This document shows positions 1 through 1,905 of a stretch of DNA of 2,337 bases, in pieces. Origin of the DNA: Escherichia coli. GTDB lineage: Bacteria > Pseudomonadota > Gammaproteobacteria > Enterobacterales > Enterobacteriaceae. The DNA lies in assembly GCF_024298765.1 (NCBI RefSeq), contig NZ_CP101220.1. One strand, given 5' to 3'. The notes below the pieces were generated by a model. That model ran no database searches. It was not told the DNA's origin and saw nothing but the letters and a program-made list of their open reading frames with translations. Each line of letters begins with the position of its first letter. The first letter of the stretch is position 1. Made by a program: the position numbers and the translations under genes.

Positions 1-133
1 CGTCGAAAAGTTGCAGCGGAAAATGGGACAGGATGTGTATTCGTCATACCGCGAATACATTCGCTTGCATGAGAATACCTCCTGTCAGGGCAAGCCCCGA
101 CACCCCAAACGTGCAAAATGGAGAATCATTGCG

Positions 134-559
134 ATGACTAAAAATAAGCGTAGCGGTTCAGAAGTACGGCAGAGGACTAAGGTTATCACCCTTAGAGTAA
201 ATAACAGAATCGCAAACGAAATCAGACGGCGAGCGAAGAGCGAAGGGCTGACTATTTCAGAATATATAAGGACAACAAGCTTAAATAATGAAATAAAACA
301 GCGCGTTCCTTCCAGATATTTAGATGAATTAATCCAACTTGGTCGGATGCAGAAGAAATTATTTGATAAAGGGAAGAGACCGAAGGACAAAGAGTATCTG
401 GATGTGATGCATAAAATAATTTCACTTTGTGCTGAAATGAAAGAAGTAACACAGCGAATTTCTGATATATATAAAAAAATGGATTTAATAAAAGAAGAAA
501 TAAAAGCAATAAAAAAAATACATAAAAATAAATACCCAGGTTCCAACTTATTTAATTGA
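134..559 (+). CDS. mobC: MobC-family ribbon-helix-helix relaxosome accessory (plasmid mobilization) protein, 141 aa from ATG 134; same frame is open to window start (alternative starts TTG 11, ATG 23)
   Basis: ORF-track frame 11..559. GGAGA at 120-124 sits 9 nt before ATG 134. Translation contains RTKVITLRVNNRIANEIRRRAKSEGLTISEYIRTTSL, matching the MobC-type RHH pattern (basic N-terminus, beta-strand, then helices with a G-L-[ST]-x-S-E-Y-[IL]-R motif), followed by a Lys/Glu-rich probable coiled-coil tail. Family assignment is from motif recall, not a search. Confidence 0.55.
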   Translation: MTKNKRSGSEVRQRTKVITLRVNNRIANEIRRRAKSEGLTISEYIRTTSLNNEIKQRVPSRYLDELIQLGRMQKKLFDKGKRPKDKEYLDVMHKIISLCAEMKEVTQRISDIYKKMDLIKEEIKAIKKIHKNKYPGSNLFN

Positions 560-567
560 GCAGAACA

Positions 568-595
568 TAGGTCTTCATAAAAATTTAAAGACCTA
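568..595. terminator. Perfect 8-bp inverted repeat TAGGTCTT-N12-AAGACCTA between the convergent mobC-like and rep-like genes; possible bidirectional terminator or protein-binding site
   Basis: Arms 568-575 and 588-595, loop 576-587. Sits in the 89-bp gap between the two convergent stop codons. No strong U-tract on either side, so terminator function is uncertain. Confidence 0.25.
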
Positions 596-648
596 TAATA
601 GAATTAGCGACATTTTGTTTTATCGAAATCTTTTACAATCATAAGAAA

Positions 649-1120: not shown

Positions 1121-1163
1121 CCGAGTAAATACTTTTTTTCCGGTATTTGATTAGCAACAAAAA

Positions 1164-1267
1164 CAGTATTCCGGTATTTGAAATACCGCTGAGCGGTATT
1201 TCAACCTCCGCTCAGCGGTAAAAACTTTCCCGCTGAGCGGTATATCTATTCCCGCTGAGCGGTATTT
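1164..1267. repeat. Iteron array: five direct repeats in exact 22-bp phase; four full copies of CCGCTGAGCGGTAT(T/A) starting at 1186, 1208, 1230, 1252, plus a degenerate leading copy carrying CGGTATTT at 1172
   Basis: Direct reading: CCGCTGAGCGGTATTT 1186-1201; CCGCTCAGCGGTAA 1208-1221; CCGCTGAGCGGTATAT 1230-1245; CCGCTGAGCGGTATTT 1252-1267. Start-to-start spacing is exactly 22 bp three times. The CGGTAT core recurs at 1172, 1194, 1216, 1238, 1260. The left half CCGCT-N-AGCGG is itself a dyad. Confidence 0.75.
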
Positions 1268-1363
1268 AGTTTGCCTCTAGGCCTTGTCACACCTGATTTT
1301 CCTATCTGTCTGTGAATCTATCTTAGATCTCGTGCGTAAGTGCACTATGCCAATACTGGTTCC

Positions 1364-1430
1364 CTTCCGCTTCCTCGCCCACTCGCGAGCCTAGCGGCTC
1401 GGTCGCTGGGGCTGCGGCGAGCGGTGCCAC
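1364..1430 (+). other. ColE1/pMB1-type origin-flanking conserved segment, probably a PriA-dependent primosome assembly site (n'-pas / single-strand initiation signal)
   Basis: Window CTTCCGCTTCCTCGCCCACT...GCTCGGTCG...CTGCGGCGAGCGGT versus remembered pBR322/pUC CTTCCGCTTCCTCGCTCACTGACTCGCTGCGCTCGGTCGTTCGGCTGCGGCGAGCGGTATCAGC. Exact blocks of 15 nt (1364-1378) and 14 nt (1412-1425) are shared. Contains hairpin CGAGCC-tagc-GGCTCG (1386-1401). Assignment of this pBR322 region to the pas is from memory. Confidence 0.55.
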
Positions 1431-1905
1431 CTCTCGCATATCGTTGACGATCCCGATTTGATCTCAGGCGATCGAGTCGCTGGCCACCGGTTAAACGCGC
1501 TCAAAGCCTCCCAGACGCACAAAACGCGGGTTAAATGCCCGTCAGGGCATGGAAGGCGCGAAAAACGCTTACAGAGGTTTTCAGAAGGTTAGGCGCGCCG
1601 ATACCCCTAACCAGGGGCTTTCAGGTCGCTAGGAACCGCGCCAGCCCCCTGCAAGGCCCATTTGCACGGAACAGACAGCCACTCGGTTGGTAGGTGGTCG
1701 TAGACCGTCGGTGTTACAGCGATGGGGGTCTGGGGTTCTCCCCAGACGGTTTCCGGTTGCGCTCAAGGCGCTGCCGGAACCGTGGCGGCTTCGATGGTGA
1801 AGGGTGAGCGCGTTTCCAAGAGGTTTTCCAGGCAAGCTATGACTGAACTGAACAGATTGAACGAGGAGGAAACGCGCTCAGACGCTTTGTAGCGCGCTTT
1901 TCTGT
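1431..1905. other. GC-rich, ORF-free, hairpin-dense segment; candidate ColE1-like RNA-primed origin/regulatory RNA region (RNA II preprimer and antisense RNA I analog), or another structured noncoding RNA
   Basis: Sharp rise in GC relative to flanking AT-rich genes. Only ORF is a 68-aa minus-strand Arg/Pro/Gly-rich one typical of GC-rich noncoding DNA. Hairpins seen: ATGCCC-gtca-GGGCAT (1535-1550), CCCCT-aacc-AGGGG (1604-1617), 8-bp stem 1728-1735/1740-1747 with loop TTCT, CCGG..GCGC-tcaag-GCGC..CCGG (1753-1777). Order of motifs loosely parallels pUC ori (e.g. GATACC followed by a CCAGG/CCTGG-type hairpin). No clean RNA II-like promoter was found. Confidence 0.35.
1868..1902 (+). terminator. 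Intrinsic-terminator-like hairpin with T-rich tail (stem CGCGCT 1873-1878 / AGCGCG 1891-1896, 12-nt loop, then CTTTTCT)
   Basis: Seen directly on the + strand at the 3' edge of the GC-rich block. Could be the terminator of an RNA I-like antisense RNA or of another + strand transcript. Loop is fairly large and the U-tract is interrupted. Confidence 0.35.

Follow-up and report, generated by a model that had tools for sequence, protein, structure and literature searches.

The window, the whole 2,337-nucleotide stretch of Escherichia coli DNA analyzed here, is a complete circular plasmid. Its gene at positions 134 to 559 is predicted to encode a ribbon-helix-helix (RHH) relaxosome accessory protein of the NikA family, and directly upstream lies a putative origin of transfer (oriT) like those of the I-complex conjugative plasmids. 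No relaxase gene accompanies them. In all likelihood, the plasmid is mobilized with a relaxase supplied in trans: it would bring its own NikA and oriT and borrow a NikB-type relaxase from an I-complex helper, for which IncK2/Z plasmids are the best-supported candidates. An earlier note on this DNA had described the gene as MobC-like and without a relaxase gene downstream, and had proposed that the relaxase lies upstream of the window, that the module is a remnant, or that the protein was recruited for another role. A relaxase from a co-resident conjugative plasmid was absent from these options and fits best.

The window matched complete plasmid records at 100% over its full length, circularly permuted (two-piece alignment); identical 2,337-bp records include NZ_CP075712.1, NZ_CP080145.1, and NZ_CP051705.1. 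Since the window is the entire circle, there is no sequence upstream of position 1 and its end joins its start, and a relaxase upstream of the window is therefore impossible. The plasmid carries two genes only, which PLSDB annotates as 'mobA' and a hypothetical protein.

The NikA-family gene and the adjoining oriT

The 134–559 protein matched the Pfam model PF21983 'NikA-like' at 57.6 bits (cut-off 27, E = 1.4e-15) and the NCBIfam model NF041264 'plasmid mobilization protein MobA' at 95.6 bits (cut-off 80). The RHH structure of R64 NikA(1–51) (Protein Data Bank 2BA3) was matched over residues 6–51 (phmmer, E = 5e-6). The MobC family, PF05713, gave no match to the protein even at E <= 1, and MobC membership was ruled out. 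Judged by these profile matches, the product is a NikA-family RHH relaxosome accessory protein rather than a member of the MobC family; the functional class implied by 'MobC-like' thus stands, and the family assignment does not.

Residues 1–103 of the protein are collinear with the 110-aa NikA of I-complex plasmids, in an alignment covering all 110 residues, at 38–47% identity to the NikA proteins of IncI-gamma/K1, B/O, and K2/Z. The C-terminal motif LGRMQKxLFxxGKRxxDKEY and its flanks align with I-complex NikA without gaps, and over positions 56–100, 21–22 of the 45 residues are identical. We had expected the DNA-binding N-terminal half to be far more diverged than the C-terminal half, an expectation that was not borne out (40–45% versus 47–49% identity to the helper NikAs). 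Residues ~104–141 form a K/E/I-rich helical C-terminal extension, which makes the protein ~31 aa longer than I-complex NikA. An AlphaFold2 monomer model (mean predicted local distance difference test score, pLDDT, 78) places helices at residues 24–36 and 41–50 (both of the RHH fold), 60–78, and 86–133; the RHH strand is not formed in this monomer model. As residues 86–133 are modeled as a single long helix, the 31-aa extension would merely lengthen the last helix of NikA.

The putative oriT 5' of nikA aligns with the oriT that precedes nikA-nikB in IncI-gamma/K1, B/O, and K2/Z plasmids and with that of a pOSAK1-type plasmid (Table 1). Two elements, GGACAGGATGTG (26–37) and GCCCCGACACCCC (94–106), are invariant in all five oriT sequences aligned, which comprise I-complex and nikA-only plasmids. 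The nick core occurs as a single exact copy in the plasmid and still only once when 3 mismatches are allowed, excluding a second oriT of the kind found in pBuzz. Read along the minus strand, a hairpin is followed by ACATCCTG and then TCCC, with the proximal repeat arm 8 nt from the predicted nick; the inverted-repeat hairpin appears in the single-stranded DNA fold of the minus strand (z = −3.1). The geometry of the repeat is the same as in I-complex oriTs, and its arm sequence differs from that of every helper examined. It lies where R64 has repeat A and is presumed to be the NikA binding site. The predicted nick falls on the minus strand between positions 29 and 28, if CATCCTG/T is, as we take it to be from the R64 and RP4 nick regions and from secondary citations, the sequence cleaved (the slash marks the nick); this exact position should be read as a prediction.

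The gene therefore adjoins an oriT with an inverted repeat and a nick region, as NikA-family genes do, and the region upstream of it has, from its sequence, the makeup of a canonical I-complex-type oriT. According to the earlier note, a relaxase gene together with a canonical oriT immediately upstream would make this an ordinary mobilization operon; the predicted oriT is there, and the relaxase is not.

The circularized plasmid encodes no relaxase detectable by a six-frame scan for open reading frames (ORFs), by Pfam searches of six spare ORFs (zero matches, the ORF antisense to nikA included), or by tblastn with NikB (nothing at E < 1). A relaxase elsewhere on the replicon was thereby rejected. 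The long stop-to-stop frames on the circle are those of nikA (203 codons), its antisense (172 codons), and repL (143 codons), and the remainder reach at most 82 codons. In I-complex plasmids, nikB starts 10–12 bp past nikA; the window plasmid has no such co-transcribed nikB, and its downstream neighbor is, as the earlier note recognized, a convergent replication gene, which we identify as a divergent repL. The earlier note's observation of an accessory gene without a relaxase at 134–559 likewise holds, as the ORF is real and the relaxase is missing from the entire circle.

Several features of the nikA locus are recorded here as side observations. Upstream of its start, the nikA frame stays open through oriT and past the circular junction, for 203 codons in all (2285–2337 plus 1–559, plus strand), which accounts for the 148–206-aa versions listed in databases, derived from upstream starts or linearised assemblies. 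On the minus strand, a 153-aa antisense ORF (85–546), in a frame of 172 codons and without a Pfam match, is probably a by-product of the complement of the nikA coding strand being A-rich and poor in stops. An AGGAG is found before I-complex nikA genes at a position equivalent to that of the ribosome-binding site of the window gene. The sole sigma-70 consensus match of the plasmid lies inside repL, a total below chance expectation. Finally, the ~390 bp from the GC-rich module to the nick core (1950–2337) are AT-rich, non-coding, 80–98% conserved, and devoid of any database-matched ORF; they could be a leading region, the nikA promoter, or host-factor binding sites.

Cointegrates, conservation, and co-occurrence with helpers

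A direct indication of which relaxase acts on this oriT comes from two IncK2/Z plasmids, pTMSA992 and p5312.29 (MOBP; mating-pair formation type I, MPF_I; blaCMY-2), the only large records with a close NikA. In each, a single complete unit of a sister plasmid (2312 bp in one, 2328 bp in the other) sits at the large plasmid's own oriT, with the upstream gene on one side and the native nikA and relaxase genes on the other (NZ_KR905387.1, L021, positions 4893–7216; NZ_KR905385.1, L022, positions 4893–7232). Along its whole length, the insert of 2312 bp shares 96.9% identity with pPSJ-42_11, a free plasmid. At the left junction, the IncK flank is followed by GGACAGGATGTG and then by the repeat and nikA of the small plasmid; at the right junction, the small-plasmid flank, supplied in both cointegrates by the distal oriT block (2250–2337), is followed by the same core and then by the IncK repeat, the native nikA, and the relaxase gene. 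In both, the flanks swap exactly at the 12-bp nick core, and the inserts are bounded by direct copies of it. Because a 12-bp crossover is too short for ordinary homologous recombination, we attribute the fusions to relaxase-catalyzed joining of oriT to oriT. For R64, NikB is reported to recombine copies of oriT, and NikA to stimulate the reaction (Furuya & Komano 2003, cited through PMC5714925 and PMC4902927). The inserts in the two plasmids are distinct alleles, with NikAs 87% and 75% identical to the window NikA, and hence represent two independent fusion events. According to the original paper, which mentions only 'a 2.3 kb fragment between yggA and nikA', the insertions were confirmed by polymerase chain reaction (PCR) and Sanger sequencing (PMC5350095). 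Sister plasmids have thus recombined with IncK2 plasmids at the nick core, and their oriT was recognized.

Immediately outside the core, the right junction has T in L021 and A in L022, where every free small plasmid and the IncK flank have G. Such a change may disable one oriT and so stabilize the fusion.

Selection on the module was examined with five nikA alleles from 2.3–3.1 kb relatives. The ratio of nonsynonymous to synonymous substitution rates (dN/dS) was 0.14–0.27, at dS values up to 0.57, and the C-terminal segment 104–141 was constrained as well (0.13–0.33). No allele has a disrupted reading frame, and this holds for the C-terminal extension too. Across six relatives, the oriT block (2250–2337 plus 1–112) is 96.7–98.3% identical, against 80–92% for the nikA coding sequence; its distal part (2250–2337) is 97–98% identical. 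The non-coding oriT is the best-conserved part of the backbone. We also compared the window with the relatives L005 (NZ_AP027663.1), L015, L016, and L017, in which the rep and iteron cassette (~560–1350) is replaced by another RepL/iteron set in plasmids otherwise 91–100% identical. As oriT and nikA are retained while the rep cassette is swapped, selection appears to keep them together. The module is not a remnant, and nikA is under purifying selection.

Among 5426 complete E. coli genomes, 45 carry the oriT-nikA module, always on plasmids of 2.2–3.9 kb, never on the chromosome, and never beside a relaxase; sources of the family are poultry, humans, and pets. NikA homologues at least 75% identical to that of the window all reside on contigs of at most 8.7 kb, except for the two cointegrates (a search of 5.8 billion proteins, plus PLSDB). 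NikAs on conjugative plasmids reach at most 48.5% identity (tblastn against the 72,556 plasmids of PLSDB), and neither search yielded a closer conjugative parent. For co-occurrence, we took the best 60 matches per relaxase allele, with the 45 genomes above as background. The small-plasmid module was present in 6 of the 59 genomes holding the best matches to the pTMSA992-type relaxase, versus 0.49 expected (hypergeometric P = 7.5e-6). Of four checked hosts of the identical plasmid, two (STEC2018-607 and SCU-125) also carried an IncK2/Z MPF_I plasmid.

Proposed mechanism and its alternatives

In the mechanism that we propose, an I-complex conjugative plasmid would supply the NikB-type relaxase, the coupling protein, and the type IV secretion system. 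The 141-aa NikA, as an RHH oligomer, would bind the plasmid's own inverted repeat, and this binding would place the helper NikB on the conserved nick core on the minus strand. NikB would then cut 8 nt from the repeat (CATCCTG/T) and lead the minus strand into the recipient cell, starting with the 2337-to-1950 region and ending with nikA. CACATCCTGTCCC, in the sequence context of the window, is the predicted cleavage target of NikB-type relaxases, and transfer would depend both on nikA and on the nick core CATCCTGT. The same chemistry would occasionally join the oriT of the small plasmid to that of the helper, giving cointegrates. Inferred in this scheme are NikA binding to its own repeat, NikA–NikB contact across 38–47% identity, the exact nick position, and transfer itself.

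The repeats of the helpers differ among themselves and from that of the window, and the core is invariant; on the simplest reading, NikA–repeat pairs are private and the NikB–core contact is shared. Private pairing would explain why the window family keeps its own nikA. A bolder proposal, which we consider possible but doubtful, is that the 141-aa NikA and its private repeat form a portable adaptor that captures the NikBs of several I-complex lineages, whatever the NikA–repeat specificity of the helper. The 31-aa extension would then be a candidate surface for capturing the relaxase or out-competing the helper, reversible oriT–oriT fusion would offer a second route of spread, and the G-to-T and G-to-A changes at the right junction would be fusion-locking mutations.

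Several observations weigh against mobilization by an I-complex helper. MOB-suite types the window plasmid as 'non-mobilizable'. Its NikA is only 38–47% identical to that of any helper, so contact with a foreign NikB is a presumption of the model, and a consensus sigma-70 scan found no promoter upstream of nikA. Both cointegrates come from one 454-based study, whose authors state that they checked them by PCR and Sanger sequencing (PMC5350095). The co-occurrence weakens to P = 1e-4 after one probably clonal pair is merged, and a second K2/Z relaxase allele, one frequent in isolates from humans, is not enriched (1 of its 60 best matches); the signal is real, although a poultry niche in common and the relatedness of isolates confound it. 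Among the hosts, PK8241 carries only IncF, IncI2, and IncX4 plasmids and no MPF_I plasmid, and for EM06-18-14 the one other plasmid record found is 5.3 kb. The window plasmid clearly persists without a helper.

The absence of a relaxase, and of a suitable helper from some hosts, would also be expected of a decaying remnant, in which an ancestral oriT-nikA-nikB module lost nikB and left nikA and oriT as non-functional passengers; gene deletion has been proposed as the origin of many relaxase-less oriT plasmids (Ares-Arroyo et al., PMC10123127). The selection analysis largely refutes this possibility, raised in the earlier note, given the low dN/dS at substantial dS, the frame intact in all alleles, and an oriT that is more conserved than the adjoining coding sequence and any other backbone block. 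The module moreover persists while the neighboring rep cassette is swapped, and sister plasmids have recombined with IncK2 plasmids at the nick core; decay is extremely improbable. The same note had suggested that the RHH protein serves elsewhere, for which a repressor of copy number or rep, or an orphan CopG/RelB-like antitoxin, with no role in conjugation, would be the forms to consider. RHH relaxosome proteins often autoregulate, RefSeq attaches the Gene Ontology term 'regulation of DNA-templated transcription', and the protein has weak matches to CopG_antitoxin (22.7 bits, cut-off 28), RelB antitoxin (22 bits, cut-off 50), and DUF6290. These antitoxin scores lie below their cut-offs, however, while the NikA and MobA models exceed theirs and give far higher scores, and the plasmid has no toxin gene or other partner ORF with any Pfam match, as a type II CopG/RelB antitoxin would require. 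The gene is linked to oriT and not to any one rep cassette, its repeat is unlike the repL iterons, and recruitment would leave both the conserved nick core and the cointegrates unexplained. With the gene in its canonical place beside an intact oriT, we regard such a role as very unlikely.

A closer competitor retains mobilization in trans and assigns it to a MOBP helper outside the I-complex (IncI2, IncX4, or an unsampled type), the IncK2 cointegrates being by-products of a shared core. The modest identity of the closest conjugative NikA and the IncI2 and IncX4 MOBP plasmids of PK8241 would fit this view. On the other hand, I-complex oriTs have the identical 12-nt core and 13-nt GC motif at the same spacing, both independent cointegrates involve IncK2, the co-occurrence is specifically with IncK2-type relaxases, and no closer conjugative NikA was found in the 72,556 plasmids searched. 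We therefore judge a non-I-complex helper improbable and favor mobilization by an I-complex plasmid.

Replicon and comparison with known systems

Table 1. Features of the 2,337-bp circular plasmid.
Feature	Position	Strand	Remarks
oriT, nikA-proximal part	1–112	−	nick core, inverted repeat, and GC motif; minus is the predicted transferred strand
oriT, distal part across the junction	2250–2337	−	AT-rich conserved non-coding block; would enter the recipient first
Nick core GGGACAGGATGTG	25–37	−	transferred strand reads CACATCCTG/TCCC
Imperfect inverted repeat	37–78	−	arms GTATTCGTCAT (37–47) and ATGAGAATAC (69–78); inner repeat TGTATTCG/CGAATACA
GGGCAAGCCCCGACACCCC	88–106		contains the motif GCCCCGACACCCC (94–106)
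Ribosome-binding site GGAG	120–123	+	10 nt 5' of the ATG at 134; read from sequence
nikA-like gene	134–559	+	141 aa; ATG at 134; predicted RHH relaxosome accessory protein; RefSeq name 'MobA'
Hairpin AGGTCTT-N-AAGACCT	569–598		between convergent nikA and repL; read from sequence
repL-type replication gene, divergent	649–1068	−	139 aa from GTG; RefSeq 137 aa from ATG at 1062
Iteron region upstream of repL	1138–1273		repeat search
GC-rich (58–63%) structured non-coding module	1340–1800		backbone, not part of the mobilization module

The replication protein itself has no Pfam or NCBIfam match, and relatives 98–99% identical to it are named RepL or carry PF05732. RepL homologues extend to Arsenophonus, Providencia, Vibrio, and Photobacterium. 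Upstream of repL, four 22-bp repeats with the palindromic core CCGCT(G/C)AGCGGTA (1186–1273) and two TTCCGGTATTTGA repeats (at 1138 and 1169) make up the iteron region, the presumed vegetative origin. Rfam gave no RNAI or other true match, only a spurious microRNA match, and a ColE1-type replicon or known RNA was rejected. The hairpin between nikA and repL is likely a bidirectional terminator; a consensus terminator scan made no call there. Strain STEC2018-607 holds two family members (2337 and 2461 bp) with different RepL cassettes, which suggests that rep swapping serves to avoid incompatibility.

The GC-rich module recurs at 84–89% identity in pKL1, a cryptic plasmid of 1.5 kb, and in over 1000 small plasmids of enterobacteria, and a stretch of it (1355–1424) also adjoins mobC in 4.07-kb MOBQ plasmids. 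Its single-stranded DNA fold is stable on both strands (z = −4.1 for plus and −2.8 for minus). It presumably resembles the primosome-assembly region downstream of the pBR322 origin, and it may be a single-strand initiation site that would enter the recipient early.

Database typing of the family is uneven. PLSDB lists the window plasmid under replicon Col(MG828) with mobility 'non-mobilizable', a MOB-suite label given to NZ_CP075712.1 and NZ_AP027663.1 although oriT and nikA are intact in them; 'mobilizable' is the label of pKL1, a plasmid without a mob gene. The 'Col(MG828)' call spans unrelated rep genes, a helix-turn-helix RepA in pKL1 and RepL in the window plasmid. Sister plasmids of 2310 bp are filed under Actinobacillus pleuropneumoniae (NZ_CP031857.1) and Klebsiella pneumoniae (NZ_CP045685.1), reflecting either a wider host range or contamination or mislabeling.

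These findings bear on how small plasmids are annotated. Predictions of plasmid mobility commonly rely on relaxase genes, with the result that plasmids of this type are scored 'non-mobilizable'; where a small RHH gene bears the label 'MobA' or 'MobC', it should be compared with NikA models and an adjoining oriT looked for. An orphan accessory gene with its oriT can be a functional, selected mobilization module rather than debris, its transfer here being a prediction. The cointegrates with blaCMY-2 IncK2 plasmids provide sequence-level evidence on which helper relaxase acts, and they demonstrate that small plasmids of this kind can fuse into resistance plasmids at oriT. In the literature covered, which was incomplete, we found no paper describing the window family or interpreting the IncK2 cointegrates.

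Among known systems, MobC of MOBQ plasmids (RSF1010, ColE1-like, and MOBQ4; PF05713) has the same role, that of a small accessory protein aiding the relaxase at oriT. MobC genes adjoin their own mobA/mobQ relaxase, as in the 4.07-kb MOBQ plasmid pEC545_4, whereas the window gene does not. The oriT-nikA-nikB region of R64 and the I-complex (IncI1; IncI-gamma, B/O, K, Z; MOBP) has the same oriT-nikA order, the same GGACAGGATGTG and GCCCCGACACCCC, a repeat ending 8 nt from the predicted nick, and a collinear RHH NikA. The window plasmid differs in having no nikB, no transfer genes, other repeat arms, the NikA extension of ~31 aa, and a 2.3-kb RepL replicon. pBuzz and pEC156, which carry an oriT only, are likewise mobilized in trans through an I-complex-type oriT, by B/O or R64 plasmids. 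pEC156 has an R64-like oriT without nikA, with a nick region and repeat A almost identical to those of R64, and was mobilized by R64drd11 (PMC4743918). These plasmids rely on the NikA of the helper, whereas the window plasmid has a private repeat and its own NikA.

The nearest parallel is the pCERC7 group, reported as ColE1-like plasmids that encode NikA and an R64-related oriT and no NikB (Moran & Hall 2017, as described in PMC9282650, PMC10123127, and PMC11389934). NTP16, of this group, is reported to be mobilized by R64 (PMC9282650). The strategy of pCERC7, NTP16, pU302S, and pOSAK1-type plasmids is the same: each is small, has its own nikA and an oriT related to that of R64, and lacks a relaxase. 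As in that group, the window plasmid has no relaxase or mating-pair genes and an oriT homologous to that of a conjugative plasmid. Its NikA is only 36% identical to that of the pOSAK1-type plasmid, which we take as a representative of the group, and is 141 rather than 107 aa long, with different repeat arms; the identical NikA and highly conserved oriT that mark the pCERC7 group are thus not shared. The replicons also differ, with ColE1 RNAI/RNAII and Rop in the pCERC7 group and RepL with iterons in the window plasmid. By these sequence comparisons, the window family appears as a separate lineage using the pCERC7-group strategy. Mobilization with a relaxase in trans is already known, and what is new here is a lineage that would couple it to a RepL replicon and a longer NikA.

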